64,000 nucleotides of DNA from an uncultured Clostridia bacterium (GCA_947589235.1 CANQAX010000002.1:9054-73053); one strand, 5' to 3'; shown: positions 1 to 48,799, numbered from the stretch's first letter. The notes: a model not told the origin generated them from the sequence alone. Made by a program: numbers and translations.

Positions 1-241
1 TGATTTCGGCGATTGCGTCTTTGAGTTGTTTTATGTACGCCTCCTTTACAGTATTCCCATGTACGGGAATCGGTATTTTTTTGTGAGTTTGAGAATGTCG
101 AATCGCTACCCCGTGCCCACCGTTTCCTGTTACCTTTTCAAAACCGAAATGCTTTGCGATCAAAAAGAATTCGTCAAACGTAAAATCGTTCGGAATGGGG
201 ATGCGAAAAAACTTATCAATCAATTTTTGCGTAGTAGACAA
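1..241 (-). CDS. HicA-like type II toxin (YcfA/HicA mRNA interferase family), 3' end runs off the window
   Basis: Hand translation of the minus strand from TTG at 241, with a GGAGGAG RBS at 247-253: MSTTQKLIDKFFRIPIPNDFTFDEFFLIAKHFGFEKVTGNGGHGVAIRHSQTHKKIPIPVHGNTVKEAYIKQLKDAIAEI... The G-G-H ... IPxH ... L pattern fits HicA toxins. It is absent from the ORF track because no stop lies in the window. Confidence 0.5.
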   Translation of the reverse strand, partial: MSTTQKLIDKFFRIPIPNDFTFDEFFLIAKHFGFEKVTGNGGHGVAIRHSQTHKKIPIPVHGNTVKEAYIKQLKDAIAEI

Positions 242-364
242 ATTTTCTCCTCCCTATTGGTATCATATACGGTATTACTTATTATATGCTTTTTTATTCG
301 GGTGTCAAGCAATTTTTAGTAATTTTTATGTGAATTGCTTCAAAGATCCGTTTTTGATTATTGA

Positions 365-889
365 AAATTTATTACGAACAGGAACGGAATAGCTTTTGAT
401 GTCAACCCCGCTGCTGTTGAGCTGACAAAAAAGAAATGTGCATTTGAATGCGACAGCGCCTCCACGATACAAATAAAGCAAGGCGACGCGCGGAACCTTG
501 ACTTGCCCGATAAATCGGTGGATTTGATTTGTACTCACCCACCGTATGCCGATATTATCCATTACAGCGAGGACATCGATGGCGATCTCTCGCTCCTTCC
601 AATGAAACCATTCCTGTCCGAAATGGGGAAAGTCGCAGGTGAAAGCTATCGCGTTCTGAAGAAGGACAAGTTCTGCGCCGTCCTCATGGGCGATACCCGT
701 AAAAACGGAATGGTTCAGCCACTCGCCTTTGAAGTCATGCGGCTTTTCGAGCTCGCAGGCTTTAAGACGAAGGAGATCATCATCAAAGAACAGCACAACT
801 GCAAAACAACAGGATATTGGAAAACGAACAGCATTAAGTTCAATTTCCTGTTACTTGCGCATGAGTACTTGTTTGTATTTAAGAAATAA
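365..889 (+). pseudogene. 5'-truncated SAM-dependent DNA (N6-adenine/N4-cytosine type) methyltransferase remnant
   Basis: The open frame after the stop at 362-364 reads ...NGIAFDVNPAAVELTKKK...GDARNLDLPDKSVDLICTHPPYADIIHYSEDIDGDLS... This carries the (D/N/S)PPY catalytic motif IV. The SAM-binding motif I is missing, and only a DPF... trace survives in another frame (ORF 195..392 ends KDPFLIIENLLRTGTE*). No plausible full-length start exists. Confidence 0.55.
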
Positions 890-941
890 AGCAAACATAC
901 CAAAGATATAATTCTATTTTACGGATAAACTAATTGACCAA

Positions 942-977
942 ACAGAGAAGTCGAGAGATTTGCTCTCGACTTCTCTG
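942..977. terminator. Bidirectional stem-loop between the methyltransferase remnant and the flavoprotein gene
   Basis: ACAGAGAAGTCGAGAG-attt-GCTCTCGACTTCTCTGT is a perfect long stem followed by TTTGA. The T-tract is short on both strands. Confidence 0.5.
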
Positions 978-1071
978 TTTGACTCGCCTAAAGGTGTATT
1001 CCGAAAAAAATTTTTGATTCCCCATGGAATACGCCTCTCCGGGGCGGGTCGTTTTTTTATCGGGTGAAATT

Positions 1072-1692
1072 TTATCGGATGAAATTCGTCGAGATCCTTC
1101 GCTCGGGGGCGGGGTATCCGATCCCCTTCTCCCTTCCCGCGGCGATGCACTTCAAGAGCCACGCCGCATTGCGCGCGAGGGTGCGCATGGTCTGGAGCCC
1201 CTCGCCGTCCCGCTTGACCTCTTCGGGCGTGTTCCCATGCACCTGATTCCAATACTGCGACGAGACGACGGGCATGCCCGATATCGTAAAGTACTTGTTG
1301 AGACGGTCGAACGCGGCGGTTGCGCCCCCGCGGCGGCAGCTGACGACCGCCGCCCCGATCTTCCCCGCCATCCGACCGCCGGCGGCGTAGAAGAGTCTGT
1401 CGAGAAAGGCGGTGAGCTGTCCGCTCGGACCCGCGTAGTACACGGGCGAGCCGACGATCATGCCGTCAAACTCATCGAGACGGGAAACGATCTCGTTGAC
1501 GCCGTCCGAAAAGGCGCATTTTCCCGCCGCATGGCACGCCCCGCAGGCGATACACCCCGCAACGGGCTTGTTTCCGATCCAAAAGGTCTCGCTCTCGACG
1601 CCCTCCTCGCGGAGGGTGCGGGCAACTTCGTCGAGCGCGGTCGCGGTGCAGCCCCTCTCATGCGGGCTTCCGTTGAGAAGAAGTAGTTTCAT
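1072..1692 (-). CDS. Flavodoxin-like fold NAD(P)H-dependent FMN reductase / iron-sulfur flavoprotein family
   Basis: ORF 1072..1833 trimmed to the ATG at 1692 (GGAGGAC RBS upstream). The protein reads MKLLLLNGSPHERGCTATALDEV...GSPVYYAGPSGQLTAFLDR..., typical of the NADPH-dependent FMN reductase family. Confidence 0.85.
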   Translation of the reverse strand: MKLLLLNGSPHERGCTATALDEVARTLREEGVESETFWIGNKPVAGCIACGACHAAGKCAFSDGVNEIVSRLDEFDGMIVGSPVYYAGPSGQLTAFLDRLFYAAGGRMAGKIGAAVVSCRRGGATAAFDRLNKYFTISGMPVVSSQYWNQVHGNTPEEVKRDGEGLQTMRTLARNAAWLLKCIAAGREKGIGYPAPERRISTNFIR

Positions 1693-1741
1693 TTTGTCCT
1701 CCATGTCGCTGTTTTCGTACCCCATTTCGGCAAAACGGGCA

Positions 1742-2584
1742 TTACACCCCCCGCTGATGGAAGTAGCGGAGATAGGATTTTCTGCAATACTTGCACACCT
1801 CGTCGTCGGTGGCGGGCTCGGCGGAGAAGGCATACTTCCCGTTCACGCGCCAACCGTTGAGGAGGGAGATCTTCAAGGCGTCCTCGGGGCAGGAAAACGC
1901 GCACGCCATGCACCCGACGCACGACTTGCCGAACTTCGGCTTGCCGTCCTCCATGCGGATATTCCCCTGCGGGCAGAGCTTCGCGCAGGCGCCGCACCCG
2001 ATACATTTTTCCGTCGGCTTGAACCGGTGCCCCAAGTGCGGCATGGCGGTGTGCTCGATGCGGAGAGCGAACGAGCCCATGCGCTTGAGGGGACCGATCC
2101 TCTTCCTTGCGCCGCCGAGCGAGAGCATCTCCTCGGCATCGGAAGGAAAAGCCGTTTCCGCCGCCTTCCACATGCGCGCCGCCATCCCCTCCGAGTGGCG
2201 GAAGATGATGTTATAGGGCATGACGTAGCGGTACTCGCCGATGACGGCGTAACCCCTCTTTTTCAAGATGCGGCGGGGGGAGACGGCGGACGCGTCGTTC
2301 ATGGCGAGCGGCTCGCCCGACGTGCGAACGAGATAGGCGGGGCGCTTTCCCTTCTCCTTGGGGAGGGATTTCAAAAATTTCAGGACAGACGCGGGCGCGT
2401 TGAACGCGTGGACGGGATATCCCACCACGAAGAGATCGTACGCGCGGGCGTCGGGATAGACGGAATCGGCGCGGATGGGCACGACGTCCGCCTCATGCCC
2501 GCGGGCGCGGAAGAGCTCCGCAAGGGCGGAACAGACGCGCGCCGTGTTGCCCGTTCCCGAGAACACCGCAAAGAGCGCCTTCAT
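1742..2584 (-). CDS. Flavodoxin-like domain fused to a 2x[4Fe-4S] ferredoxin domain (EFR1-type ferredoxin)
   Basis: The N-terminus MKALFAVFSGTGNTARV is flavodoxin-like. The C-terminus carries CIGCGACAKLCP and CVGCMACAFSCP cluster motifs. An ATGA start/stop overlap with the upstream gene at 2581-2584 indicates an operon. Confidence 0.8.
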   Translation of the reverse strand: MKALFAVFSGTGNTARVCSALAELFRARGHEADVVPIRADSVYPDARAYDLFVVGYPVHAFNAPASVLKFLKSLPKEKGKRPAYLVRTSGEPLAMNDASAVSPRRILKKRGYAVIGEYRYVMPYNIIFRHSEGMAARMWKAAETAFPSDAEEMLSLGGARKRIGPLKRMGSFALRIEHTAMPHLGHRFKPTEKCIGCGACAKLCPQGNIRMEDGKPKFGKSCVGCMACAFSCPEDALKISLLNGWRVNGKYAFSAEPATDDEVCKYCRKSYLRYFHQRGV

Positions 2585-4113
2585 TTCTCCCTCCTTGCCG
2601 TCGCGTTGCCCTCTTCGTCGAATCCGTAGAGGTAGCGCTCCTCTTTCCCGTGTGAATCATACCAGACCTGCGCGTAGAAGGGCATCTTCTCCGCGAGAAG
2701 GTCGAACCGCCACGGCGCGGGCATGCAGAAGGGGCACCAGTGCCCGCCCTTCAGAACGGTGTAGGGGCTCGCCTCGAAGGTGTGCCCCTCGCAGCACCGC
2801 CATGTGAGCTTGCGGTAGACGTCCCCCTTCTCCATCTCCTCGCTCAAAAGCTCTCCGCCGCGGAAGGCAGCGGCGCCCCGCATGTCCTCCGTATCCCACT
2901 CGGAGAGCGGCTTGCTCTCGTCGTAGCCGTGATCGAGAAGGCGGGCGTTCTCCCTGTCGCGCATGGCGTCATAGTCGCCGAAGTCCCCCTTCGCGATGAG
3001 CTTGACGCCCTCCCATCTGTCGGGGAGCGCCTTCGCCGCCTCCATGCTGCCGAAGGTCGCGATGACCCTCGCCTCGTCGCCGTTCTTTACCCAGCGGTAG
3101 GGAGAATTGGGGTGATTGCGGAGCCTGCGGAAGAGAAAGAGGTCGATGAGCCCGCGGGGGACGAACTTCCCGAGCGCATACAGCTTGTGCGCCCGCCCGA
3201 TCTCCTTCCAATATTCGTGCACGTCGTCGCGCTGATAGGAGAAGAGCTCCTCGAGCTCGCCCCCGTCGTAAAACCAGAGCCCGTGGAAGTTGCGCGTCGC
3301 GAGCCACTTGGGACGGAAGAACTTTTCCGCCGAGCCGCCGATGATGCCGAACCCGTCCTTGAAGGTGTCGTAGCCCGTCTCCATGCCCTTCTTCCCCGCG
3401 CCGATGTTGTAGATCTTCTTCCAGAATCCGGGGACCTCGCCCTTCCCGTCGCGCTCGAGAATGCGGCGGATGAGATACCCGCTGTCCCGCGAGGAGACCC
3501 ACTCGAGGGGCGCGTTGAGGGCGGTGTGGAACATGAGCCCGTCCGAGATGTTGTCGTGCATCATGTTGGGGTGGAGCATCGCCGTCTGCCGCAGAACCGC
3601 CCAGCAGTCGAGCTCCGCGTCGAGGCAATACCGCTCGCCGTACAGCTTGTCCATGGCATAGTGGTCGAAGGGACTGACGAGGAGAGGGTCCCCCACCCGC
3701 CCGAAGGGGTGCTTCTCGTTGCGGTTGCCGTACAGCGCGACGGTGGAGATGTGAATGTATTTGGGCTGCGGGGACTGCGCCTTCACGGCGTTGACGATGC
3801 ACATCGCGCCCTCGCGGTTGCATTTCTCGCTCGCCTCGGGGCTCGCGTCCGAGCGGGGCGGAATGACCGCCGCCATGTGCACGACGTAGTCCGTTCCCGC
3901 GACGAGCCGTTCGCACGCGACGGGGTCATGGAGCCAGCCGCGCACGATTTGGATCTTCTCCCCGTACGCCTTCCGAAGCCGCTTGGCGAGCTTGTTGTTC
4001 TTCTTTTTCGGCGTGAGCAGGACGCGGATCCACTCCACTTCCCGCAGGGTCATGCTCTGCGCGAGCGCTTCCCTGCCCATATTCCCGCTGACGCCCGTCA
4101 TGGCGATCTTCAT
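2581..4113 (-). CDS. NAD-dependent epimerase/dehydratase (extended SDR) family protein with a long C-terminal extension
   Basis: MKIAMTGVSGNMGRE is a Rossmann GxxGxxG-type N-terminus. VVHMAAV and ...Y..DKLYGER are SDR-like motifs. The protein is 510 aa, with a GAGGGT RBS before the ATG at 4113. Confidence 0.8.
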   Translation of the reverse strand: MKIAMTGVSGNMGREALAQSMTLREVEWIRVLLTPKKKNNKLAKRLRKAYGEKIQIVRGWLHDPVACERLVAGTDYVVHMAAVIPPRSDASPEASEKCNREGAMCIVNAVKAQSPQPKYIHISTVALYGNRNEKHPFGRVGDPLLVSPFDHYAMDKLYGERYCLDAELDCWAVLRQTAMLHPNMMHDNISDGLMFHTALNAPLEWVSSRDSGYLIRRILERDGKGEVPGFWKKIYNIGAGKKGMETGYDTFKDGFGIIGGSAEKFFRPKWLATRNFHGLWFYDGGELEELFSYQRDDVHEYWKEIGRAHKLYALGKFVPRGLIDLFLFRRLRNHPNSPYRWVKNGDEARVIATFGSMEAAKALPDRWEGVKLIAKGDFGDYDAMRDRENARLLDHGYDESKPLSEWDTEDMRGAAAFRGGELLSEEMEKGDVYRKLTWRCCEGHTFEASPYTVLKGGHWCPFCMPAPWRFDLLAEKMPFYAQVWYDSHGKEERYLYGFDEEGNATARREK

Positions 4114-4144
4114 TTGTTACCCTCGTAGAACTTTTAACTGTTTT

Positions 4145-4173
4145 AGTATAGTACAATCCGCGCGGCTTGTCAA
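4145..4173 (-). promoter_or_regulatory. SigA-type promoter of the SDR/ferredoxin/flavoprotein operon
   Basis: Minus strand: TTGACA (4173-4168), 17-nt spacer, TATACT (4150-4145). This lies about 30 nt upstream of the ATG at 4113. Confidence 0.6.
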
Positions 4174-4227
4174 ACGCTGTAATGTTTTTCGGTGACATTT
4201 TCACGATTTTTTTCGGAAAAAATCTCC

Positions 4228-4242
4228 GCCCCCGCCGATTGG
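4228..4242. repeat. Left copy of the 15-bp direct repeat GCCCCCGCCGATTGG flanking the AT-rich islet
   Basis: Identical 15-mer at 4228-4242 and 6544-6558. On the minus strand the left copy is followed by GGAGATTTTTTCC. Confidence 0.85.
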
Positions 4243-4401
4243 GCGGTGTTCGTGTGGATTCGGAATCGAACGGCTTGGCAATTGTATAGACCGCTTTTTT
4301 TTGCAACAAAAGCGGGCAAAATTTCTCTTTGAGGGGAAACAGGATAAGGATTGTGGGCATTCCTGCCCCGGTCGCCCCTTAACAGGCGGGAAACCCGCTC
4401 A

Positions 4402-4530
4402 TTATTTCTTTTTCGTCGAGTTCTTCTTTTTCGCATAGTACGCGGCAATTGCCGCTTTTTGTTTTTTCCGCGCCTCCGGAGTTTTGGCTTTTACATAGCT
4501 ACTTCTCTTTTTTTCTTTATTGAAGAACAT
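4402..4530 (-). CDS. Possible 42-aa highly basic peptide
   Basis: The ATG at 4530 overlaps the end of the 4517..5287 gene. The peptide reads MFFNKEKKRSSYVKAKTPEARKKQKAAIAAYYAKKKNSTKKK*. A small hairpin GCGGGaaaCCCGC (4386-4398) follows. There is no clear RBS, so this is speculative. Confidence 0.25.
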   Translation of the reverse strand: MFFNKEKKRSSYVKAKTPEARKKQKAAIAAYYAKKKNSTKKK

Positions 4531-5287
4531 TCTGTTCGCCCTCCATGCTTACAACTGCTTCAAAGTCGCATTCGTCACAGTAAGCCTGCAATCGCTCTAT
4601 TAGTCTTTCACTCGGCTTGAATTTTTGTTTTATGAAATAGACATCCTGCATATCGTACAGCGGTGTTGCCGCGATCTTACATTCGTTGATATCATAAAAT
4701 ACGCAGTAATTTCCGAGGTCTGTCCAATATCCGTAAAAATAATCAAACGCGAATACTTTGTGTCGCTCATTTGTTTCTTTGCTTCGGAAATATAATATCC
4801 GATATTTACAGCAAGCAGTAGAAAAAATATCCAGTTCCCTGTCGAATATCAACGCTTCCCTTTTGTATAACGGAAGCATACTATATTCATTCAGCAATCC
4901 GCGGATATATACGGATACCTCTTGTGCCGTTATCATGGTCTCCGACGTTTCTATTTCATCAAAGACGGAAATGTTTTCTTTTGAAGGACGGATCCAAATG
5001 GATTCTTCCAGTTTTTCCAGATCCTCATCGTTGAAATACACCCTGTCAATGACGGTGTTTACGGCGTTATAGATATTTTCACTGTCTGTCCGATTGTATT
5101 CGGTCTTTAATATTTTTTCGATTTGGTTGCGTCGTTCTTTGCGCACTTCCACGAGCGTGGGAATGAGCTTATTCAAAAGCCCATTCTTATTTGACTTTCC
5201 GTTTTTTGTAAATTCACAGCGCAGCGCGTCGATTTCCAAAATGTTCGCCACAAAGGACGAAACCTTCACTTTGATTTTGTCTTTCAT
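4517..5287 (-). CDS. Hypothetical protein, possibly a WYL-like ligand-sensing regulator
   Basis: ORF 4517..5317 trimmed to the ATG at 5287 (GGAG RBS 8 nt upstream). It uses AT-rich codons. The C-terminal stretch YRILYFRSKETNERHKVFAFDYFYGYWTDLGNYCVFYDINECKIAATPLYDMQDVY loosely follows the WYL-domain beta pattern. No family could be assigned confidently. Confidence 0.7.
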   Translation of the reverse strand: MKDKIKVKVSSFVANILEIDALRCEFTKNGKSNKNGLLNKLIPTLVEVRKERRNQIEKILKTEYNRTDSENIYNAVNTVIDRVYFNDEDLEKLEESIWIRPSKENISVFDEIETSETMITAQEVSVYIRGLLNEYSMLPLYKREALIFDRELDIFSTACCKYRILYFRSKETNERHKVFAFDYFYGYWTDLGNYCVFYDINECKIAATPLYDMQDVYFIKQKFKPSERLIERLQAYCDECDFEAVVSMEGEQNVLQ

Positions 5288-5308
5288 TCGGTAACTCCTA
5301 TCATTCAC

Positions 5309-5337
5309 ATTATACAAACTGTCTACCCATATATCAA
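5309..5337 (-). promoter_or_regulatory. Consensus promoter for the 4517..5287 gene
   Basis: Minus strand: TTGATA (5337-5332), 17 nt, TATAAT (5314-5309). The spacer contains the repeated box GGTAGACA (TGTCTACC on the plus strand). Confidence 0.6.
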
Positions 5338-5402
5338 GAAAATATAGATAAATCGTAAATATTGTCTACCATAAAACCCGAAATACGGCAGACGGAATTT
5401 TG

Positions 5403-5431
5403 TTGAAGTGCAAGTATTTTTTTGCTATAAT
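5403..5431 (+). promoter_or_regulatory. Consensus promoter for the 5491..6485 three-gene operon
   Basis: TTGAAG (5403-5408), 17 nt, TATAAT (5426-5431). Confidence 0.6.
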
Positions 5432-5490
5432 GAAAATGTAAGCGGAGCAAGGCGCCCCTCTGCTTGACAAAATTTAAGGAAGGTATTAAA

Positions 5491-5865
5491 ATGAGTATAG
5501 TTGGTTTTTTGCTTAAGCCAAAAAAAGAAATGGCGAAAAAAAATACGAAGTATGTAAGGGTCGGTAAATACCATCTGACTTCCCATGCGCAGAACCGGAT
5601 TGTTCAAAAGGAAAGAGCAATGGACAAGATCGATGTTTTGGACAATCTGTTTACAAAACCAAACGCCATTACGCAAGTGAAATACAATAAAAACGGCAAA
5701 CCCTCATATGATCGTGTGGGCAAGAGAATTACGACAAGTATAAATCCAACAAACAACAATGTTGCGACTTGCCGACCTGTAAGTAAAAAAGAAATGAAAC
5801 AATTCGGCTTGACCGATATCGGGAAAAAAGGAGGAAAAAGGAAATATGTTAAGCGAAAGTCTTAA
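5491..5865 (+). CDS. Hypothetical basic protein, weak DUF4258 / BECR-fold RNase-toxin-like pattern
   Basis: ATG at 5491 after an AAGGAAGG RBS. The protein reads MSIVGFLLKPKKEMAKKNTKYVRVGKYHLTSHAQNRIVQKERAMDKIDVLDNLF...YDRVGKRITTSINPTNNNVATCRPVS... and ends in a lysine-rich tail. The H..HA..R ... D.L ... T.I.P...V.T pattern resembles DUF4258-type toxins, from memory only. Confidence 0.7.
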   Translation: MSIVGFLLKPKKEMAKKNTKYVRVGKYHLTSHAQNRIVQKERAMDKIDVLDNLFTKPNAITQVKYNKNGKPSYDRVGKRITTSINPTNNNVATCRPVSKKEMKQFGLTDIGKKGGKRKYVKRKS

Positions 5866-6121
5866 AAGCAGATTTACGCCGAGAGCAAAAGAGGAAGCCA
5901 AAAAACTTTTATCCGAAATGAAGATAGCGGAGTTGAACGACGACAACCTCTATGAGGTCGAAGTCGAGCTTGACACAAGGGTAAGCGGATTGGTCACGAT
6001 GAATGAATGTGAACATCAACCGATAGATCATGAGCTTTTGGACATCTACGATACACTGACGGATATTATTCTTGAGCACGAAGAAGAGATAAATTTCCTG
6101 AACAAGTTGTTTTTGGAATAA
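5846..6121 (+). CDS. Hypothetical small acidic protein
   Basis: Strong RBS AAAGGAGGAAAAAGGAAAT before the ATG at 5846. It overlaps the previous gene by 20 nt. The protein is 91 aa and rich in D/E (…NDDNLYEVEVELD…EHEEEINFLNKLFLE). Confidence 0.7.
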   Translation: MLSESLKSRFTPRAKEEAKKLLSEMKIAELNDDNLYEVEVELDTRVSGLVTMNECEHQPIDHELLDIYDTLTDIILEHEEEINFLNKLFLE

Positions 6122-6164
6122 AAGAAAAAGGGAATGGGGCGGCAAAAAAATTTCGGAGGAAATT

Positions 6165-6485
6165 ATGAAAAAAAGAAATAAAAAGACAGAACAAGAAGCG
6201 CCGCTCTTTTGCGTCAGTGAAGAAGCAATTGATTTTATTCGCACATACATCCTTCCCGTTAAACATATCGACTTTATAGACGAGGATATATTTTATGATA
6301 TTTTTGAAATTGCGGAAAGCTGGGAACTCGATATGATCGACGAAGACGGATTTGACAAAACAGATGATCCGTTTATAGAACGGGATACAATGGGAATGAA
6401 TTTCGTCTCTGAAATATCGGGGCAAGACGCCGAGCCGGATCTCGACGACCTGAACCGCCGTTTGGGATTGCGCAAAACAAATTAA
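6165..6485 (+). CDS. Hypothetical small acidic protein
   Basis: RBS GGAGGAAATT before the ATG at 6165. The protein is 106 aa and very acidic (…IDEDIFYDIFEIAESWELDMIDEDGFDKTDDPFIE…AEPDLDDL…). Confidence 0.7.
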   Translation: MKKRNKKTEQEAPLFCVSEEAIDFIRTYILPVKHIDFIDEDIFYDIFEIAESWELDMIDEDGFDKTDDPFIERDTMGMNFVSEISGQDAEPDLDDLNRRLGLRKTN

Positions 6486-6543
6486 ACAACCGGGCAAGAG
6501 CGTGTCCCGATTAAACCCTTGTCTTTATGATTCCCCATGGAAT

Positions 6544-6565
6544 GCCCCCGCCGATTGGCGGGGGC
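6544..6565. terminator. Perfect hairpin GCCCCCGCC-gatt-GGCGGGGGC; includes the right copy of the 15-bp direct repeat
   Basis: On the plus strand it is followed by AATTTTTCATTTCTTTT, which terminates the islet operon. On the minus strand it begins 6 nt after the tex stop but lacks a U-tract. Confidence 0.7.
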
Positions 6566-6571
6566 AATTTT

Positions 6572-8746
6572 TCATTTCTTTTCGGGTCTGTCCTTCCGCA
6601 TCGTGAGGGAGATGCGCCCGCGCCTCTCGTCGACGTCGAGCACGCGGACGGTGACGACGTCCCCCACCGAGAGCACCTCGGACGGGTGGCGGATATAGCG
6701 GTCGCCGATCTCGGAGATGTGCACGAGCCCGTCCTGATGGACGCCGATGTCGACGAACGCGCCGAAGTCGATGACGTTCCGCACCGTTCCCCTCAACTCC
6801 ATGCCCCTCTTCAAGTCCTTGATCTCGAGCACGTCCGTCCGCAGAACGGGCGCGGGGAGCTCGTCGCGCGGGTCCCGCCCCGGCTTCATGAGTTCGCCGA
6901 TGACGTCGTACAGCGTGGGAAGCCCTACGCCGCACTCCTTTGCCGCCCGCTCGTCCCCGTAGTCATGGAGACGCTCGCGGAGGTGACCGATTTTCCCCGC
7001 CCGCACCTCGGACATGGTATAGCCGCAGAGCGCGAGGAGCTTCTCCGCCGCCCCGTAGCTCTCGGGGTGGACGGCGGTGTTGTCGAGCACCTCTTCGCTC
7101 TCGGGCACGCGCAGGAAGCCCGCGCATTGCTCGAATGCCTTGTCCCCGAGCCCCTTCACCTTGCGGAGGGCGCGCCGCGAGCGGAAGGGACCGTTCTCCT
7201 CGCGGTACTTCACGATGTTCTCCGCGACGCTCGCGTTGAGCCCCGCAACGTGCGAGAGAAGGGGCGCGGAAGCCGTGTTGACGTCCACGCCGACGGCATT
7301 CACGCAGTCCTCCACGACGCCGCCGAGCGCCTGCGAGAGCCGCTTTTCGGGCATGTCGTGCTGATATTGCCCGACGCCGATGGACTTGGGCTCGATCTTG
7401 ACGAGCTCGGCGAGCGGGTCCTGCAGCCGCCGCGCGATGGAGACCGCGGAGCGGAGATTGACGTCGAAGTCGGGGAACTCGCGCGCCGCGAGCGGGGAAG
7501 CGGAATAGACGGACGCGCCCGCCTCGTTCACGATGATATAGGAGAGGTCGGGCAGGCGGAGGGACGAGATGAGTTCCACCGTCATGCGCTCCGTCTCGCG
7601 GCTCGCCGTGCCGTTTCCGATGGCGATGTGCTTGACGCCGTGTCTCTTGATGAGGTCGGAGAGCTTTCCGATGCACTCCCTCTTCTGCCGCTCCCCGTGG
7701 GTGGGATAGACGACCGCGGTGTCGAGCACCTTGCCCGTGCCGTCGACGACGGCGACCTTGCACCCCATGCGGTAGCCGGGGTCGAGCCCCATGGTGACGA
7801 ATCCCTTGACGGGCGGCTGCATGAGGAGGGGGCGCAGGTTGAGGGCGAACTGCCCGATCGCGCCCTCGGACGCCCGCTCGAAGAGGGCGGCGCGCACCTC
7901 GCGCTCGAGGCTCGGCTCGATGAGGCGGTCGTAGGCGTCCTCACAGCAGGCGCGGACAAAGGACGTCGCGGCGCACGGCTTTCCCACCATGCGGCGGACG
8001 GCGAGCGCGACCGCGTACTCGTGCGGGATCTCGACGCCGACGCGGAGGATTTCCTCCCGCTCCCCGCGGAATGCCGCGAGCACCTGATGCCCCGCGACGG
8101 AGGAGACGGGCGCCGAGAAGTCATAGTAGTTGCGGTAGACGGTGTCCTCGGGGTCCTTCTTCGCCGCCGAGGAGCGGAGCACGCCGTGCGCCATGGCGAA
8201 TTCGCGGAGCGATTTGCGGAGCGCCGCGTCCTCCGAGATCCGCTCGGCGATGATGTCGCCCGCGCCCGCAAGCGCCTCCTCCGCGCTCTCCACCCCCTTC
8301 TCGGGGTCGATGTAGTCCCGTGCTGCGGCAAGGGGAAGCGGGACGTCGGGCTGCTGCGCGAAGAGAAGATCGGCGAGCGGCTCCAGCCCCTTCTCCCTTG
8401 CAATCGTGGCGCGGGTGCGGCGCTTCTGCTTGTACGGGCGGTATAAATCTTCGACCTCGGCGAGCGTCGCGGCGCCGTCGATGCGGGCGGAGAGCTCTTC
8501 GGTGAGCTTCCCCTGCCCCTCGATTGCCCGCTTTACCTCGGTGCGGCGGGCTTCCAACCCGCGGAGGTACTCGAGCCGCTCGGACAGGGAACGGATGGTT
8601 TGGTCGTCCGTCGCGCCGTGCATTTCCTTGCGGTAGCGCGCAATGAAGGGGACGGTGTTCCCCTCGTCGAGCAGGGAGACGATGTTTTTGACGTGCTCCT
8701 CGCTCTTGTGAAATTCTTCGGCTAAAATCTGTACAACATTCGGCAT
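6572..8746 (-). CDS. tex: Tex-like transcription accessory protein (YqgF/HhH/S1 domains)
   Basis: ORF 6572..9016 trimmed to the ATG at 8746. The protein begins MPNVVQILAEEFHKSEEHVKNIVSLLDEGNTVPFIARYRKEMHG... and ends in an S1 domain ...GTVRNVIDFGAFVDIGVHQDGLVHISE.... Confidence 0.92.
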   Translation of the reverse strand: MPNVVQILAEEFHKSEEHVKNIVSLLDEGNTVPFIARYRKEMHGATDDQTIRSLSERLEYLRGLEARRTEVKRAIEGQGKLTEELSARIDGAATLAEVEDLYRPYKQKRRTRATIAREKGLEPLADLLFAQQPDVPLPLAAARDYIDPEKGVESAEEALAGAGDIIAERISEDAALRKSLREFAMAHGVLRSSAAKKDPEDTVYRNYYDFSAPVSSVAGHQVLAAFRGEREEILRVGVEIPHEYAVALAVRRMVGKPCAATSFVRACCEDAYDRLIEPSLEREVRAALFERASEGAIGQFALNLRPLLMQPPVKGFVTMGLDPGYRMGCKVAVVDGTGKVLDTAVVYPTHGERQKRECIGKLSDLIKRHGVKHIAIGNGTASRETERMTVELISSLRLPDLSYIIVNEAGASVYSASPLAAREFPDFDVNLRSAVSIARRLQDPLAELVKIEPKSIGVGQYQHDMPEKRLSQALGGVVEDCVNAVGVDVNTASAPLLSHVAGLNASVAENIVKYREENGPFRSRRALRKVKGLGDKAFEQCAGFLRVPESEEVLDNTAVHPESYGAAEKLLALCGYTMSEVRAGKIGHLRERLHDYGDERAAKECGVGLPTLYDVIGELMKPGRDPRDELPAPVLRTDVLEIKDLKRGMELRGTVRNVIDFGAFVDIGVHQDGLVHISEIGDRYIRHPSEVLSVGDVVTVRVLDVDERRGRISLTMRKDRPEKK

Positions 8747-8804
8747 AGTGTCCTCTTTTGCGCAAAACCGCGCGGTCTCATTATAGCACAGACCGCGCGA
8801 AAAT

Positions 8805-9536
8805 TCAAGGATCCGGAGAAAACCGCACGGTGAGAACGGGCACATGCGGCGGGTTGTTGAGGCGGAAGGGAAAGCGGCTGCTCCCAACCCCGCGCGAGAC
8901 GAGCAGGGTCGTGTTCGGCGGGAGTTGATACAGCCCCTCCGTGTAGCGGGGAAAGAGCCCCTGCCCGGGCGCGTACACCCCCCGCCCGAACAGGCGGAAC
9001 TGCCCGCCGTGCGCATGCCCCGAGACGATGAGGTCGGGCATCAGCTCCTTCGCCGCGGCGGGTGCGAGCTCGGGGCGGTGCAGAAGGAGAATGCGGTACG
9101 CCCCCTCTTCCATGGCAGGCGCCTCGCCGCCGTTCGTCGCCCCCGCAATGAGGATAACCCCGCCCTCTCTTTCGAGGCGGGCACAGCCGTTCGTGACGTT
9201 GTGAACGCCCGCGCGCTCGAGCTCCTGCAGGATACGGGCGCGGTCGGGGTGCGCCGCCTCGTGGTTTCCCTCCGCAAAATACACGGGGAAGTGCGCCGCA
9301 AGCTCGCGGAGAAAGGCGAACGCCGCGGGGGAAAGCGGACGGCGCCTGCAGACGAGGTCGCCCGAAAAGAGCACGGCGTCGGGACGGGCGCGGACAAGCG
9401 ATGAGAGGAGCTCGGCGCAATCGACGCGCTCGCGGGGAAAGTGCAGGTCGGAGAGATGCGCAAAGCGGACGGAGAGATCCCCTTCCCCCGTCTCGTACTC
9501 GACAAATTCCGCTCTCTTGTTCTCAAACAGTCTCAT
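8805..9536 (-). CDS. Metallophosphoesterase (calcineurin-like)
   Basis: Signature motifs HLSDLHF, SGDL, GNHE and GHAHGG are present. Confidence 0.85.
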   Translation of the reverse strand: MRLFENKRAEFVEYETGEGDLSVRFAHLSDLHFPRERVDCAELLSSLVRARPDAVLFSGDLVCRRRPLSPAAFAFLRELAAHFPVYFAEGNHEAAHPDRARILQELERAGVHNVTNGCARLEREGGVILIAGATNGGEAPAMEEGAYRILLLHRPELAPAAAKELMPDLIVSGHAHGGQFRLFGRGVYAPGQGLFPRYTEGLYQLPPNTTLLVSRGVGSSRFPFRLNNPPHVPVLTVRFSPDP

Positions 9537-9608
9537 AGCTCTATTGTATGCGGCTCTTTCCCGTTTTTTCGGCTTTCACTCTCGGCATTTCGGATTTTGC
9601 GCTTACCA

Positions 9609-9785
9609 TTGCGATTGCTTCCGTTCGTCGCTGCGCCTTTTCCGCACGCTTTTGCGAATGGTCCCGTTCGCCGCTGCGTCTTCTCCGCACGCTTTTGCGA
9701 TTGCTTCCGTCCGCCGCTGCGGCTTTCCCGCACGCTTTTGCGAATGGTCCCGCTCGCCGTTTCGGCTTCTCGGATTTGATATTCC
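9609..9785. repeat. Tandem array, 43-bp period, about 4 units alternating two subtypes
   Basis: TTGCGA anchors sit at 9609, 9652, 9695 and 9738. A typical unit is TTGCGATTGCTTCCGTTCGTCGCTGCGCCTTTTCCGCACGCTT. Confidence 0.85.
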
Positions 9786-9879
9786 TCTTTTTTGTACCCC
9801 ATTCCGACGTTTTTCTAACACGGGTCGGAAAAATTCCTTTTGCTTTCGTGTGAATCAAATATTCCAACCCCCTCCCCTA

Positions 9880-10303
9880 CCCCTCCCCCTTACAAAGGGG
9901 GAGGGCAAGATATGGTACCCATACCCCTCCCCCTTACGAAGGGAGAGGGCAAGATATGGTACCCTACCCCTCCCCCTTGCGAAGGGGGAGGGGTAGGGTA
10001 CCCATCGCCCCTCGTAAAGGGACAAGAAGAGACAGGAGCACACGCCCCCTCCATTGGAGGGGTGGAGCGGCGCACCATGTTCAACAGCCCAGTGGGCTGT
10101 GAACGCGCCGCGACAGGAGCGCAGGAAAGCGCGACGGGGATTCGGCGGTCCCTGCCGCCGAATCGCCCGCAAGGGCGGGGGTGGGCTGAACGCGAGCGAA
10201 TCGCGGGGTTTCCGTCATTTCGACGACGCGTAGCGGCGCACGAGCCATACGACTTGTCATTTCGACGACGCGTAGCGGCGCACGAGCGAACCGCTGGGTT
10301 TCT
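9880..10303. repeat. Cluster of GC-rich hairpin words plus partial GTCATTTCGA units
   Basis: CCCCTCCCCCTTACAAAGGGGGAGGG-type palindromes occur three times at 9885-10000. GTCATTTCGACGACGCGTAGCGGCGCACGAGC occurs at 10213 and 10256. Confidence 0.8.
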
Positions 10304-10455
10304 GTCATTTCGAGCGGAGCGGAGTATCGCATGAGCCACGGGCGAATGCGATACGGAGCGAAGTCGAGAAATCTATGCTCAAGAGTGCAGAGTGGTTTCG
10401 TTTATTCTCAATAAGGTTGAGATGTCTCGACTACGCTCGACATGACATTATTGTA
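10304..10455 (+). repeat. Copy 1 of a ~150-nt structured dispersed element
   Basis: TGTCATTTCGAGCG (10304-10317) pairs with CGCTCGACATGACA (10434-10447). GTATCGCAT pairs with ATGCGATAC (10324/10346). GTCGAGAAATCT pairs with AGATGTCTCGAC (10363/10420). Other copies lie at 26511, 26896(-), 36257 and 48535(-). Confidence 0.85.
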
Positions 10456-10543
10456 CGCCGTATCGTGACACAAGCCGCGGCGGGACGACATGACACTATT
10501 GTGCGTCGGGACGGAACACATGCCACGGCAAAACAATACGAAA

Positions 10544-10719: not shown

Positions 10720-12381
10720 CTAAATTTCGCTGCCCGGGATCGCGTCCTCGTGGGGCACGTTCTTCTTGATGAGGCGCAGGAAGGTGACGGGGTCCACGAC
10801 GACGACGTTCTCGTTGAGCTTTTCGACCATCTCCTTCACCTGCGGGTAATCCATCGACCAGACGTGCAGGTTGACATAGGTATAGCCGTCGATTGAGGTG
10901 GCGTCCGCGGGGTACGAATTGATCTGGCTCGCGATTGCCTCGGGCGAGCTGTTCCACATCGTCGCGCGGCAGGCGACGAAGGGCTTGCCGTTCTCCGACC
11001 AGCGCACCCTGCCCGCGTCCCCAACGTAGCAATCCTGATAAGTGCAATAGAGGAACCCCTCGGCGTGCTCCATCTTCGAGTAGGCCTCGATGACCCTCTC
11101 GTTCAGTCCGTTGTCGAGGATCTTGACGACGGAGAGGTCGCATTTCTCGAGGTATTCGTCCAAGATGGAAGTGAACCGCTTGAGCTGTTCCTCGGGGTAG
11201 GTCAAGGGATAGGTATACCCGAGCCCCGAGACGCTGCACACGAAGGTGTCGCCCGCCTTGGCATTGTTGTAGGTATGGCGGAGAATGTTGGGCGCAAGGC
11301 TGTAGAGCGCGGGGCTCACCGACCAGCCCATGGGGAATCTGCCGCGCGAGGCGCCCATGTACTTGGACTGATCGAACGTCCCGCCGTACCAACACTGCAG
11401 GTTGTCGCCGTCGCTGTTCACGATGGTGATGTAGTGCTTGTTCGTGGGGTATTCCCTCTCACACGGCTCGTTGGGCTGAATGAATTCCTCCTCGCCGAAG
11501 AAGTCGGTACACGAGAACACCGTCATGTTCCTGCAATAGTCCGATGCGAGCGTGAAGCTGCCATACGTCGAGGAAAACGCGACGTCCGTGCCCTCGTCGT
11601 TCGGGCACCAGCCGTAGACGGCGCACCCCTCGCACCACTTCTGGACGTCGTTGCGGAGCTTCAGAACGTCCCGCTTCGTCCCGGGAAGGTAGTAGCAGAA
11701 GTACTTGCACGCAATGGCATAGTCGGTGAGGTCGACGAGGGTGCCCCGCTGCTGAACGAGCCCCGTGTTGTCGAGGTCGTCGCGGTAGGTATCGAAGCAT
11801 TCGCGGGCGGTCATGTTCCGCACGTCGACCTGCTCGGTCATGCCGTTGGCGTCCGCCCACTCCTTGAGGGAGACGTCCACCATCGCAAGCTGTTTCGCCC
11901 CCGCGACGGTGCGCGCGCAGTTGACCGATTGCTCGTTTTCCCTGTCGAACAGGACGTACCCGCCCGAAAAGCGTGCCAAAAAGTCGGTGCGCATGTCGTC
12001 CAAGGTGACGTCGCGGTTGTGCTTGCCGTAGTTCGCCTCGAGCTCGTTCAGCCACGTGTCGTAGGCGCCGCCCGCCTGACGGTAATACTTTGATTCGCCC
12101 GCCTGCGCGAACAGCCCCTGCACCGATTCGGCGAAGAAGAGCTGCGCCGTGGAGAGCGCCTCGCAGCGGTTGAATACGAGGAGGTCCCCCTCCGTCATGG
12201 TCATCTTCTTGAAATATCCCTGATAGTTCACGGGTTCCTCCGGTCCCGACGGCTGCTGCGGTCCCGACGGCTGTTCGGGATCGGGCGAGCCGCCCCCGCC
12301 CGCCGTCCCCCCTTCCCCGCACGAGACGGGAAGGAGAAAGAGCGCTGCGGCAAATACGAGCGCAAAAATTTTCTTGAACAT
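10720..12381 (-). CDS. GxGYxYP-family lipoprotein (putative glycan-active protein)
   Basis: Lipobox LLPVSC at the N-terminus and an SGLGYTYP motif. It is a paralogue of the next gene. A GGAGGA RBS precedes the start. Confidence 0.85.
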   Translation of the reverse strand: MFKKIFALVFAAALFLLPVSCGEGGTAGGGGSPDPEQPSGPQQPSGPEEPVNYQGYFKKMTMTEGDLLVFNRCEALSTAQLFFAESVQGLFAQAGESKYYRQAGGAYDTWLNELEANYGKHNRDVTLDDMRTDFLARFSGGYVLFDRENEQSVNCARTVAGAKQLAMVDVSLKEWADANGMTEQVDVRNMTARECFDTYRDDLDNTGLVQQRGTLVDLTDYAIACKYFCYYLPGTKRDVLKLRNDVQKWCEGCAVYGWCPNDEGTDVAFSSTYGSFTLASDYCRNMTVFSCTDFFGEEEFIQPNEPCEREYPTNKHYITIVNSDGDNLQCWYGGTFDQSKYMGASRGRFPMGWSVSPALYSLAPNILRHTYNNAKAGDTFVCSVSGLGYTYPLTYPEEQLKRFTSILDEYLEKCDLSVVKILDNGLNERVIEAYSKMEHAEGFLYCTYQDCYVGDAGRVRWSENGKPFVACRATMWNSSPEAIASQINSYPADATSIDGYTYVNLHVWSMDYPQVKEMVEKLNENVVVVDPVTFLRLIKKNVPHEDAIPGSEI

Positions 12382-26373: not shown

Positions 26374-26510
26374 GCGATAAATTTTTCGTTTTGTACTTTT
26401 TGTGTGAACTTTGAACAAACGGGGGGAACTTTTCCGCCCTCCCCTTTCCGCCCCGCCCCCTTCGGGGGCGACATGACACGATTGTGCGGCGGAGCGGAAG
26501 CCGCACAGGT

Positions 26511-26693
26511 TGTCATTTCGAGCGGAGCGGAGTATCGCACGAGCCGTAGGCGAAGTAGCGGAGCGGAGTATCGCACGAGCATTGGGCGAATGCGCTACGA
26601 AGCGAAGTCGAGAAATCTATGCTCAATAAGGCAGAAATCGACTTTGTAATAAGGTTGAGATGTCTCGACTACGCTCGACATGACATTATTGTA
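26511..26693 (+). repeat. Copy 2 of the structured dispersed element (with an internal duplication of the GGAGCGGAGTATCGCACGAGC segment)
   Basis: It has the same module order as 10304-10455. Confidence 0.85.
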
Positions 26694-26895
26694 TGGCTCG
26701 TTGCGACACTTGCTGCGGCGGGTGGGCACCTCATACCGAGCCCCAAAGGGGCGAGCGTATCTGTGAGCATAAGATTCGCTCGGCTCCTTGCGGAGCATAC
26801 TTCGCGCAGAGCGCTCGTGCCGCCTTACGGCGGGGCGGTATGAGGTTCGTTGCCCCCCTCCACCGGAGGGGGGGGCGTGTGTCGCGACCCGCTGC

Positions 26896-27042
26896 ATAAT
26901 AGTGTCATGTCGAGCGTAGTCGAGACATCTATTCCTTATTAGCAAAGACATTCTCTGCATTATTGAGCATAGATTTCTCGACTTCGCTTCGTAGCGCATT
27001 CGCCCGTGGCTCATGCGCTACTCCGCTCCGCTCGAAATGACA
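26896..27042 (-). repeat. Copy 3 of the structured dispersed element, inverted relative to copy 2
   Basis: The reverse complement reads GTCATTTCGAGCGGAGCGGAGTAGCGCATGAGCCACGGGCGAATGCGCTACGAAGCGAAGTCGAGAAATCT... Confidence 0.85.
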
Positions 27043-27202
27043 GCCTGTGCGGCTCGTGCGCGCCGAAAGGGGTGTAATAGCGGTGAGGCAAGCCTTCCCC
27101 CCTCGGGGGGAAGGTGTCCCGAAGGGACGGATGAGGGACAGAAAAACCCGCCGAAATGCGCCAATGGGGTGCAAAAATCCCCCCGCAGCATTCCGCTGCG
27201 GG

Positions 27203-36030: not shown

Positions 36031-36256
36031 GATTTTTCTCCTTATGTGTCGATTGGTCTCCCCGCGGCGCCGGCACGAACGCACGGAACCCCTGCTTCCC
36101 ATTATAGCCGCCCCCCCCCCGTTGTCAAGCATTTTCAACAGAATGTGGAAATTTTTGATCCTGACGCTTGGGAAGAATGCGGCAAACGCCTGACGCGAGC
36201 GAATCGCGGGTGACTGTCATTTCGACCGAAGTGAGCGGCGCACGAGCCGCAAGGAC

Positions 36257-36405
36257 TGTCATTTCGAGCGGAGCGGAGTAGCGCACGAGCAATGGGCGAG
36301 TGCGGTACGGAGCGAAGTCGAGAAATCTACGGCAAAATAATGCAGAGTTCGACTTCGTCAATAAGGAATAGATGTCTCGACTACGCTCGACATGACATTA
36401 TTGTA
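36257..36405 (+). repeat. Copy 4 of the structured dispersed element
   Basis: It has the same modules as the other copies. The inner hairpin here is GTAGCGCAC ... GTGCGGTAC. Confidence 0.85.
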
Positions 36406-36690: not shown

Positions 36691-36696
36691 AATATT

Positions 36697-48682: not shown

Positions 48683-48799
48683 GAACCCCGCAATTCGCTC
48701 GCATTATACCTTGCCCACCCCCTTCCCCCTCCGCGGGAGGGGGCAGATGATTGGGCAATATCAATCATATTCGGGCGGGGGTGGGGCATACGATTGGGT

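Follow-up and report, generated by a model that had tools for sequence, protein, structure and literature searches.

Why do two separate AT-rich islands in the genome of an uncultured Clostridia bacterium end with the same 16-nt word? In the 64,000 nt of DNA analysed here (the window), a 16-mer search found exact copies of TGATTCCCCATGGAAT at 1015-1030 and at 6528-6543, as a sequence-only reading of this DNA had claimed. Its description of the surroundings was also accurate: the GC profile steps from ~35-45% to ~65% at both copies, and a hairpin resembling a terminator comes after each of them (1032-1046 and 6543-6566). That reading had in addition called a chance recurrence very unlikely. The repeat is real, but the statistical argument was overstated. 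Matches with up to three mismatches are expected 0.30 times in the window, and none of 100 shuffles reached three matches (the third site, at 11325-11340 on the minus strand, has three mismatches). However, the window holds 77 repeated blocks of at least 16 nt, about 13 of which are isolated 16-18-mers that appear to recur by chance. The significance of the 16-mer therefore lies in its position and its conservation in other genomes, not in recurrence alone. The organism's own assembly (99 contigs, 1,520,027 nt) contains two exact copies, none with one or two mismatches, and seven with three. With only these two copies in 1.52 Mb, both bordering islands, a generic REP or dispersed repeat word is excluded.

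The first copy lies at the right end of the first island (island 1), for which the following features were delineated:

1-1040, plus strand: right part of island 1 (empty-site contig, Pfam, GC profile)
2-241, minus strand: hicA toxin gene (L001 9043-9294; first codons left of the window; Pfam HicA_toxin, E=6.2e-5, under the curated cut-off)
503-889, plus strand: truncated N6/N4 DNA methylase fragment of 128 aa (Pfam N6_N4_Mtase, E=8.6e-7, profile positions 1-106 of 221)
937-983, no strand: subterminal perfect hairpin of the right end (..AAGTCGAGAG..CTCTCGACTT..; fold and comparison)
984-1014, plus strand: conserved subterminal right-end region (GACTCGCCTAAAGGTGTATTCCGA..; found in the 23 aligned right ends of relatives, a few of them with 1-2 substitutions)
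1015-1030, plus strand: 16-mer copy 1, the right-end core and proposed element (P) half-site of attR (alignment to related ends)
1031-1040, plus strand: right-end inner arm and loop remnant (ACGCCTCTCC), the last 10 nt of the insert (empty-site boundary; homologous to ACACCC plus loop in relatives)
1041-1058, plus strand: host 3' arm GGGGCGGGTCG and T-run, terminator of a GDSL-lipase gene (empty site, hairpin-arm comparison)

The whole insert comprises 4266 nt (C2:5828-10093) and starts 3.2 kb outside the window. It carries a D12 Dam-like methylase, a DpnI-family protein, a 130-aa ORF, HicB, HicA, and the methylase fragment; the HicA/methylase cargo named previously was thus confirmed by Pfam, together with HicB as the neighbour of hicA (E=1.1e-12). 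A hairpin related to that at 937-983 is similarly placed in elements of G005 and G018, and 16-mer copy 1 repeats the left-end core in inverted orientation. Strains that are ~99.3% identical differ in whether they carry island 1: metagenome contigs in runs X1 and X5, with 14 differences from the own genome over 2013 flanking nt, join C2:5827 to C2:10094 (window 1041), with GGAGA in between. The empty-site allele lacks the 16-mer and forms a single hairpin, CGACCCGCCCC-GGAGA-GGGGCGGGTCG-TTTTTTT, whose 5' arm CGACCCGCCCC is found at C2:5817-5827, on the opposite side of island 1. The 16-mer, taken earlier for the right edge of the island, is thus located at the composition step, but the true edge of the insert is window position 1040, 10 nt further. 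The GGAGA loop of this allele reads as the reverse complement of TCTCC, the loop at the right junction, and because of this inversion the allele does not directly show the ancestral attB.

The second copy closes a smaller island, the islet, with these features:

4228-4242, plus strand: left direct repeat, consisting of the host 5' arm GCCCCCGCC, the loop GATT, and GG (repeat and arm comparison)
4243-4308, plus strand: islet left end (module 1, degenerate), with the core GTGTGGATTCGGAATC at 4252-4267 (aligned to the island 1 left end and relatives)
4309-4404, plus strand: module 2 of the islet, ~95 nt conserved, with a central hairpin and a GAAA-loop hairpin (comparison with relatives)
4402-5287, minus strand: cargo, a 41-aa lysine-rich ORF (4402-4530) and a 256-aa ORF (4517-5287) of no known family
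5491-6485, plus strand: cargo, three ORFs (5491-5865, 5846-6121, 6165-6485) of no known family
6486-6527, plus strand: subterminal right-end region (..GCGTGTCCCGATTAAA..), a weaker form of the family consensus (alignment)
6528-6543, plus strand: 16-mer copy 2, the islet right-end core (match and alignment)
6544-6575, plus strand: perfect hairpin GCCCCCGCC-GATT-GGCGGGGGC followed by AATTTTTC, which is both the right direct repeat and the terminator that follows the Tex gene (hairpin analysis)
6572-9016, minus strand: Tex gene, right neighbour of the islet

The direct repeat reported to abut copy 2 (GCCCCCGCCGATTGG, at 4228-4242 and 6544-6558) was found, as was the weaker relative of the 16-mer near the islet's left end (GGATTCGGAATC, 4256-4267), which recurs at the left end of island 1. 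The islet proteins had no match at E<=0.01 in Pfam, PADLOC, PHROGs, or NCBIfam, and the best ESM Atlas score of the 256-aa protein (0.82) was under the usable level. This protein is, however, identical at 228 of 255 positions (89%) to one in an element of another genome (G138:C13), which carries the islet cargo at another terminator. The genes flanking the islet are adjacent in G071 and G054, the only two of 11 relatives compared that keep the neighbouring gene. The exact empty site was not obtained from the orthologous Tex-downstream loci of 11 relatives, because these are too diverged (78-85% identity, 201-nt Tex anchor), and the 15 listed of 55 joints on metagenome contigs did not include one that skips the islet.

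The ends of the two islands are homologous. The left ends align over ~100 columns, from a TGGATTCGGAAT core through the common motif ..TTTGAGGGGAAAC.GGATAAG, and the right ends have the exact 16-mer in common. Among 130 genomes of the genus, the left end was matched in 58 and the right end in 43, both counts including the own genome (42 of 129 without it, for the right end). When 23 related right ends were aligned, 18 read TGATTCCCTATGGAAT, one had the own genome's exact form, and four differed at 1-2 positions; in each of them, the conserved sequence stops at the 16-mer. A pattern scan of species representatives yielded 49 loci, 43 of which have a right-end context (35 passed a strict subterminal test for GGTGTATTCCGA or GGTGTATCCCGA, the remainder being judged by eye); the other six are in unrelated phyla, with ~9 chance matches estimated. 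At all 43, the 16-mer closes the conserved element sequence and unrelated DNA lies beyond, and the element side is lower in GC at 33 of 36 right ends. These results bear out the proposal that both islands belong to one family of elements, of which the 16-mer is the terminal motif. The family consensus ends are imperfect inverted repeats (right GATTCCCTATGGA, left TCCATAGGGATTC); in the own genome, this symmetry is weak (only ~9-10 nt), because the left cores CAATATGGATTCGGAAT and CGTGTGGATTCGGAAT differ from the consensus CCATAGGGATTCTATGAAT. An origin unrelated to mobility, as a chance repeat or as a host palindrome with a regulatory or terminator-associated role, would fit the partly palindromic sequence of the 16-mer (ATTCC..GGAAT) and the other 16-18-mers that recur in the window. 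Such an origin is already contradicted by the restriction of the two copies to island borders, by the 43 terminal positions, and by the empty-site allele, and is extremely unlikely.

Into what do these elements insert? All nine complete elements are flanked by inverted arms of 7-18 nt that together make up one host hairpin split by the element, at nine different host hairpins, and the 43 right ends have 43 different flanks, a feature of multi-targeting. These flanks share a profile in fixed register: W-rich at positions 2-5, G-rich at 6-11, and a T-run at 14-21; a T-run of at least 5 nt within 45 nt of the right end was observed for 31 of the 43. Thus, the family inserts in terminator hairpins. 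For the 32 nt that follow the motif, the minimum free energy (-4.15) was no different from that of a GC-rich control (-4.92), and it was therefore dropped as evidence.

Direct repeats of 10-15 nt flank four of the nine complete elements, namely island 1 (10 nt, or 16 with one mismatch), the islet (15), G138:C6 (12), and G059:C8 (14). They could be read as target-site duplications left by a transposase with long staggered cuts, with the 16-mer as its binding site in a terminal repeat. Against this reading, the junctions share at most 6 nt in the other five elements, including both that encode a recombinase (see below), the repeat length is variable, and every repeat falls on one arm of the host hairpin. 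Furthermore, no transposase gene is linked to the ends, as opposed to a recombinase gene at 15 of 30 loci, so that a staggered-cut mechanism is very improbable. A serine recombinase crosses over at 2 bp, which does not generate direct repeats of 10-15 nt. No single crossover dinucleotide was found by inspection of the nine junction pairs: TC is compatible with G048 and island 1 and GA with the islet, but no dinucleotide suits all nine.

The recombinase gene in question encodes a large serine recombinase (LSR) of the DUF4368 type, with the Pfam domains Resolvase, Recombinase, Zn_ribbon_recom, and DUF4368. Of 30 related left-end loci, 15 have this gene immediately next to the left end, and the 15 enzymes are 80-100% identical to one another. 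Two complete LSR-bearing elements with both ends were found, G048:C1 (4.9 kb) and G138:C1 (11.6 kb). Of the "recombinase or nuclease" to which the ends had been attributed, the enzyme associated with them is therefore the former and not the latter. ORF and Pfam searches detected no LSR in island 1 or the islet. In the own assembly, tblastn found only the last 35 codons of an LSR gene at the start of a contig (C47:3-107), beside a left end of a different subtype.

Taken together, the 16-mer is very probably the right-terminus core of a family of small integrative elements (~1.7 to 12 kb), the complete members of which are moved by the DUF4368-type LSR. Both islands are members without a recombinase gene. 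The cargo of the family is mostly made up of genes for restriction-modification, toxin-antitoxin, and abortive-infection systems. In an excised circle, the right end (..GATTCCCTATGGAATACACCC) would be joined to the left end (GGCGGGTGTCCATAGGGATTC..), creating a dyad-symmetric attP. Integrated copies are located between the two arms of a host intrinsic-terminator hairpin, with the host 5' arm to their left and the host 3' arm with the T-run to their right. The LSR presumably binds the 16-mer as an att half-site, and the crossover may take place within the hairpin loop. A circular joint (right-end core, 0-28 nt, left-end core) was found in none of the metagenome contigs, a collection that may not hold the family, and in none of the 130 genus genomes; this search covered assembled contigs, and assemblies rarely keep such forms. 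Counting against this explanation are the absence of an LSR from both islands, the lack of an LSR match in three of five genomes with LSR-less elements, the degenerate left cores, the 10-15-nt flanking repeats of four of the nine elements, the missing circular junction, and the inverted empty-site loop.

Both islands keep both att ends but no recombinase, a feature of non-autonomous, cis-mobilizable elements (CIMEs). Are they still mobile? Alternatively, they could be immobile relics that lost the recombinase gene in place and whose shared ends are now beyond the action of any recombinase. Degeneration is indeed visible: besides the altered left cores, the central hairpin is gone from module 2 of island 1, and a 0.5-kb derivative in another genome (G144:C7) retains only ~200 nt of the LSR 3' end. 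Among five genomes with LSR-less elements, moreover, no LSR match at E<=1e-20 was found in G018, G130, and G059, while G005 has only a 115-aa fragment of the same LSR type and distant LSRs. Such a relic status is nevertheless rather unlikely, because the LSR-less architecture of module 1 plus module 2 is present at ~11 different loci (including two in G018 and three in G138), derived left-end changes (TGGATTCGGAAT) are common to both islands despite their different sites, the islet cargo is found at a second locus in G138 with 89% amino acid identity, and island 1 is polymorphic among nearly identical strains. The many loci, the polymorphism, and the second cargo locus indirectly suggest that members lacking the LSR may be mobilised in trans. 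Module 2 was found in recombinase-less elements and is absent from the LSR-bearing G048 element. In module 2 and the left ends (L001; L002-L005, L007), Rfam detected nothing at E<=1 beyond the tRNA and sub-threshold noise. RNAalifold on 15 copies predicted the central hairpin and the GAAA-loop hairpin, but a double compensatory change supports only one of the 17 pairs, which does not establish a structured RNA.

A more far-reaching reading, which we consider unlikely, would combine several of these observations. The LSR would recognize the shape of a terminator, that is, the pattern of a C-rich arm, a loop, a G-rich arm, and a T-run, and not one particular sequence. Once the element is in place, its inner att arms would be rewritten to match the host arm, e.g., by template switching within the imperfect palindrome. 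Such rewriting would re-create a functional terminator to the left and to the right and leave both the 10-15-nt pseudo target duplications of four of the nine elements and the inverted empty-site loop. The LSR-less module 2 cassettes would be a self-standing parasitic lineage that spreads defence genes via the LSR of its relatives.

Clostridial elements moved by large serine recombinases include Tn4451/Tn4453 (TnpX) and Tn5397 (TndX). Judged by its domains (Resolvase, Recombinase, zinc ribbon, DUF4368), not by sequence comparison, the family LSR resembles TnpX and TndX, and the elements likewise have many insertion sites, one recombinase gene at one end, and short imperfect inverted ends. Unlike those elements, both islands lack a recombinase, and the family targets intrinsic-terminator hairpins in fixed register; no description of such targeting by an LSR was found in the literature. 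A multi-targeting LSR clade is described of which 63% have DUF4368 and which includes TndX-like enzymes (PMC10083194), and a central GA dinucleotide is reported for TndX targets (PMC4430133). The islands can also be compared with recombinase-less elements of other origin. Described CIMEs derive from tyrosine-integrase ICEs and occupy one specific site, often in tandem with an ICE. Like them, the islands retain both ends without a recombinase, but the family enzyme is a serine recombinase, the copies are dispersed, and the LSR-less form has its own conserved module 2. The ccr-less SCC-like cassettes of staphylococci have no recombinase, conserved terminal repeats with direct repeats, and restriction-modification cargo, and are thought to be moved by Ccr large serine recombinases from another cassette. 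The LSR-less members share with them the lack of a recombinase, the conserved ends, and restriction-modification cargo; however, SCC elements insert at one site only, located at the 3' end of a particular gene, whereas the family elements are found at many sites. In addition, the family LSR is not a Ccr enzyme, because its scores are far under the Ccr cut-offs (CcrB 107 bits, cut-off 900; CcrC 92.5, cut-off 900; CcrA 68, cut-off 700). MITEs are non-coding, depend on a DDE transposase, and generate target duplications of fixed length. The islands resemble them as non-autonomous derivatives retaining the terminal inverted repeats of an autonomous element, but in this family each element has 2-5 genes and the linked enzyme is a serine recombinase. 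In the definition of CIMEs, attL and attR are kept and the integration genes are lost (PMC5704250).

What was an unexplained repeated word now defines a family of mobile elements whose ends are mapped, for which a candidate enzyme is at hand, and whose targets follow a rule, i.e., terminator hairpins in fixed register. Insertion between the arms of a terminator spares genes and may keep termination working on both sides, which would explain how small defence cassettes spread at low cost in compact gut genomes. Examples of such cargo in the family are restriction-modification, HicAB, AbiE, and SIR2-STAND systems. The recombinase-less members suggest that serine-recombinase elements spawn non-autonomous derivatives, as DDE transposons do. 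Multi-targeting LSRs are of practical interest as integration tools (PMC10083194), and an LSR family whose target motif is defined and structured, and for which 43 natural sites are available, offers a ready data set on target choice.

The 16-mer TGATTCCCCATGGAAT occurs as two exact copies in the window. The sequence-only reading had placed it at the ends of both AT-rich islands, and at each copy the GC content indeed steps from about 35–45% to about 65%, with a terminator-like hairpin next to it.

Features of the two islands and of the 16-mer (positions in the window)
1015-1030: 16-mer, copy 1, right end of island 1 (the HicA/methylase island)
1032-1046: terminator-like hairpin after copy 1
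4228-4242: direct repeat GCCCCCGCCGATTGG, left of the islet
4243-4308: left end of the islet (module 1)
4309-4404: module 2, ..AAGTGGGCA..AGCAGGATAAGGA-hairpin-TCGCCCCTCAACAAGCGGGAAACCCGC
6528-6543: 16-mer, copy 2, right end of the islet
6543-6566: terminator-like hairpin after copy 2
6544-6558: direct repeat GCCCCCGCCGATTGG, right of the islet
11325-11340, minus strand: third 16-mer-like site, 3 mismatches

The same reading considered a repeated 16-mer very unlikely by chance, which was too strong, as about 13 of the 77 repeated blocks of at least 16 nt in the window are isolated 16–18-mers in GC-rich coding DNA. For sites with up to 3 mismatches, 0.30 were expected in the window, and none of 100 shuffles gave three. 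The window corresponds to C2:9054-73053 of the source assembly. Across the whole assembly (99 contigs, 1,520,027 nt, 60.7% GC), the only exact copies are the two in the window, no site has 1–2 mismatches, and seven unrelated-looking sites have 3 mismatches. The weight of the observation comes from where the copies lie and from their conservation in other genomes rather than from recurrence alone.

Island 1 extends leftward past the window and spans about C2:5828-10093 on the source contig C2 (locus L001), with a GDSL-lipase gene on one side and an FMN-reductase gene on the other. Its left end and that of the islet can be aligned along about 100 columns, which begin at the TGGATTCGGAAT core and extend through a shared ..TTTGAGGGGAAAC.GGATAAG motif. 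The supposed weaker relative of the 16-mer, GGATTCGGAATC, proved to be this left-end core and is present in both islands; the left cores of this genome are degenerate. The left-end alignment and the right-end 16-mer together show that both islands represent one element family. The flanking repeats of island 1, CCTCTTCGGGGCGGGT and CCTCTCCGGGGCGGGT, are unrelated to the pair around the islet. Farther left, beyond a tRNA-Ser gene (L001 4402-4493, minus strand), a second low-GC block (L001 1-4493) reaches the contig end. Its genes code for an HsdM-type methylase, a Fic protein, a TIR+methyltransferase fusion and a HAD_SAK_2 protein, and a further island probably occupies this tRNA site.

Within the genus, 3 of 24 other genomes matched the left end of the islet, and among 16 genomes belonging to other families of the order none did. 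A more typical left end, taken from the related genome G018, matched 58 of 130 genus genomes (E<=1e-3, own genome included, some matches short and partial), and the last 108 nt of island 1 matched 43 of the 130 (E<=0.01, own genome included). The 23 aligned right ends of relatives read ..GACTCGCCCAAAGGTGTATTCCGATA..TTTTyT-TGATTCCCTATGGAATAC-(A/G)CCC, followed by unrelated DNA; 18 have TGATTCCCTATGGAAT, one has the exact CCCC form of the own genome, and four have 1–2 differences. A pattern scan with TGATTCCCYATGGAAYRCNCC of 185,579 genomes, each representing a different species, returned 49 loci, with an estimated 9 or so chance hits. Right-end context was found at 43 loci (35 by a strict subterminal-motif test, the remaining 8 by eye); the other six belong to unrelated phyla and have no such context. 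By title, 42 of the 43 come from uncultured Clostridia MAGs. The remaining one, L133, comes from an Acetatifactor MAG, and may reflect spread of the family to another lineage. GC is lower on the element side in 33 of the 36 right ends with enough flank, and a T-run of at least 5 lies within 45 nt in 31 of the 43. In the own genome (G000), a 3-mismatch relative of the 16-mer at C79:4312-4327 (GTGATTCCCCGCGGAAAAC) is followed by a T-run and preceded by CCGAAAAAAACTTTT, which resembles the subterminal region of island 1; this site could be a solo right end that has degenerated.

No two of the 43 right flanks are the same, but they follow one register after ..ACACC: position 1 is C (42 of 43), positions 2–5 are A/T-rich, positions 6–11 are G-rich, and a T-run occupies positions 14–21 (33–39 of the 43 at positions 14–16). 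A fixed register with differing flanks implies that the target is a pattern, namely a C-rich arm, a loop, a G-rich arm and a T-run. Moreover, mutually inverted arms of 7–18 nt are present in the left and right flanks of all nine complete elements (island 1, the islet, G005:C39, G018:C11, G048:C1, G138:C1, G138:C6, G138:C13 and G059:C8). G048 is the plainest example, with CCATGAAAAAAGCGGACC in the left flank and GGTCCGCTTTTTTCATGG in the right flank: these are the two arms of a single bidirectional terminator that the element splits. The inner arms of the element, ACACCC and GGCGGGTGT, mimic the target pattern. No description of terminator-loop targeting by a serine recombinase was found in a literature search that covered few subscription journals, which is weak evidence of novelty.

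Insertion was assessed by comparing contigs of public gut-metagenome runs with C2:5000-16600. An empty site of island 1 is present in a 2158-nt contig of run X1 (depth 17.9) and in a contig of run X5 (depth 3.9) from the same study. These contigs join the left flank, up to C2:5827, to the right flank, from C2:10094, with GGAGA in between and 4266 nt skipped, and they differ from the C2 flanks at 14 of 2013 nt. The empty allele, CGACCCGCCCC-GGAGA-GGGGCGGGTCG-TTTTTTT, is a single hairpin, and its joint places the end of the island 1 insert at 1040, 10 nt beyond the 16-mer. In the occupied allele (L137 828-5095, C2:5827-10094), the 3' arm comes after TCTCC, of which the loop GGAGA is the exact reverse complement; this suggests a hairpin-loop inversion between strains that are about 99.3% identical; with such an inversion, the empty allele is not a direct view of the ancestral attB. 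At L137 5017 (window 963), a contig of run X1 matches no more of island 1 than the final ~80 nt, which begin at the subterminal hairpin, and carries different sequence upstream, so that another element with the right end of island 1 was present in that sample.

Both islet junctions are bridged by contigs of runs X1 and X2, from two studies, and no joint skipping the islet was among the metagenome-contig joints listed. About 150–200 nt separate the neighbouring epimerase-family and Tex genes of the related genomes G071 and G054, so that the islet is an insertion too. The left-side cargo of the islet recurs in the G138:C13 element at a different terminator, with a 256-aa protein identical at 228 of 255 positions and about 90% DNA identity across the first 1.3 kb. 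For comparison, a 441-nt stretch of the Tex 3' end is 71–84% identical in the 51 other genomes of the genus that matched it in full, a draw that did not include G138.

Direct repeats of 10–15 nt flank four of the nine complete elements, both islands included, and the other five share at most 6 nt. In all four, the repeat overlies an arm of the hairpin, and one of the two junctions has a perfect hairpin. A duplication mechanism is the rival account of these repeats. Our best guess is that they arose when the inner arm of the element became complementary to the host arm: already host-arm-like, it could have been made fully complementary by template switching in an imperfect palindrome or, alternatively, by selection for termination.

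The left end comes in two architectures. At 15 of 30 left-end loci it adjoins the 3' end of a large serine recombinase (LSR) gene, which supports the proposed link between a recombinase and these ends; 13 loci have no LSR gene within 1.5 kb, and two are cut by contig ends. The LSR genes are 80–100% identical among themselves and match Resolvase (3.7e-15), Recombinase (2.5e-23), Zn_ribbon_recom (1.1e-13) and DUF4368 (1.4e-25) in Pfam. NCBIfam matches to XisF, CcrA, CcrB and CcrC fell far under the cut-offs. Across the family, the consensus right end GATTCCCTATGGA and left end TCCATAGGGATTC are inverted repeats of each other, and the two joined in a circle would form a dyad-symmetric site. The attP sites of serine integrases are dyad-symmetric. 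No junction of right end to left end was found in metagenome contigs or the 130 genus genomes. DUF4368 is reported by Durrant et al. (PMC10083194) for 63% of a multi-targeting LSR clade that includes TndX-like enzymes; TndX targets have a central GA, according to PMC4430133.

Complete LSR elements, and cargo of members lacking the LSR
G048:C1: complete LSR element, both ends, 4.9 kb; also AbiEi/AbiEii
G138:C1: complete LSR element, both ends, 11.6 kb; HpaII-type restriction-modification system, second C5 methylase, SIR2-STAND protein
G005: type I specificity subunit, methylase
G018: EcoRI-type methylase, GmrSD/HNH nuclease
G059 and G138:C6: esterases (BD-FAE/alpha-beta hydrolase); TetR regulator also in G059
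Island 1: Dam-like D12 methylase, DpnI-family protein, HicB, HicA, methylase fragment
Islet: five ORFs of no known family

The LSR is absent from both islands, and tblastn of the own genome recovered no more of it than the final 35 codons, at C47:3-107, which run off the contig edge and lie beside a left end of another subtype. Among five genomes with LSR-less elements, a full cognate LSR is present in G138 alone; a 115-aa fragment remains in G005, and G018, G130 and G059 gave no match at E<=1e-20. These genomes are MAGs, from which repeated mobile genes are often missing. In a ~0.5-kb derivative at G144:C7:41150-41900 (L138), about 200 nt of the LSR 3' end lie between the left end and a degenerate right end (GTAGATTCCCTATCAAATACACCC); this derivative is a deletion intermediate toward a non-autonomous element and illustrates one way in which the LSR is lost. 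The LSR-less members, with ends kept and recombinase gone, fit the definition of CIMEs, described in PMC5704250 as elements that retain att sites without an integrase. For dispersed LSR-less derivatives of serine-recombinase elements, the literature covered, with few subscription journals, gave only this concept and unrelated papers.

Module 1 is followed by the conserved, ~95-nt module 2 in 9 of the 13 LSR-less left-end loci (the islet counted among the 13), as well as in island 1 and the islet. Copies also lie in L034, L043, L052 and L011, and module 2 stands without a left end at four loci. Its stem varies among copies with pairing kept by eye (GATTG/CAATC versus GAAGTTG/CAACTTC); RNAalifold found a double change in only 1 of 17 pairs, and no Rfam family matched. 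At L031 (G064:C51), the AATAAGCGGTTTGGCG segment of module 1 is internally duplicated.

In island 1, left of the window, the D12 methylase gene (Pfam 3.2e-58) is located immediately upstream of the gene for the DpnI-family protein (1.2e-76), with which it overlaps (L001 6072-7797). DpnI cleaves methylated GATC. One of the two is probably of different specificity, because GATC methylation would make the pair self-harming.

Several families of short GC-rich dispersed repeats occur at 9600-10500, 26500-27100, 36190-36700, 48290-48850 and 62220-62850, sharing blocks of 16–48 nt. They look like REP-type elements; in relatives, the spacer downstream of Tex is filled with similar sequences. At 46100-48050 and 61150-61770, the presence of internal repeats as long as 104 nt (46631/47606) and of a 17–34-nt repeat cluster points to a gene that contains repeats and to a region of tandem repeats.

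Altogether, the observation holds and the interpretation given by the sequence-only reading is supported. The results support the identification of the 16-mer as the right-end core of a terminator-targeting element family linked to a DUF4368-type LSR, and of island 1 and the islet as LSR-less members of that family. We infer that the LSR would bind the 16-mer and would have moved these two copies.
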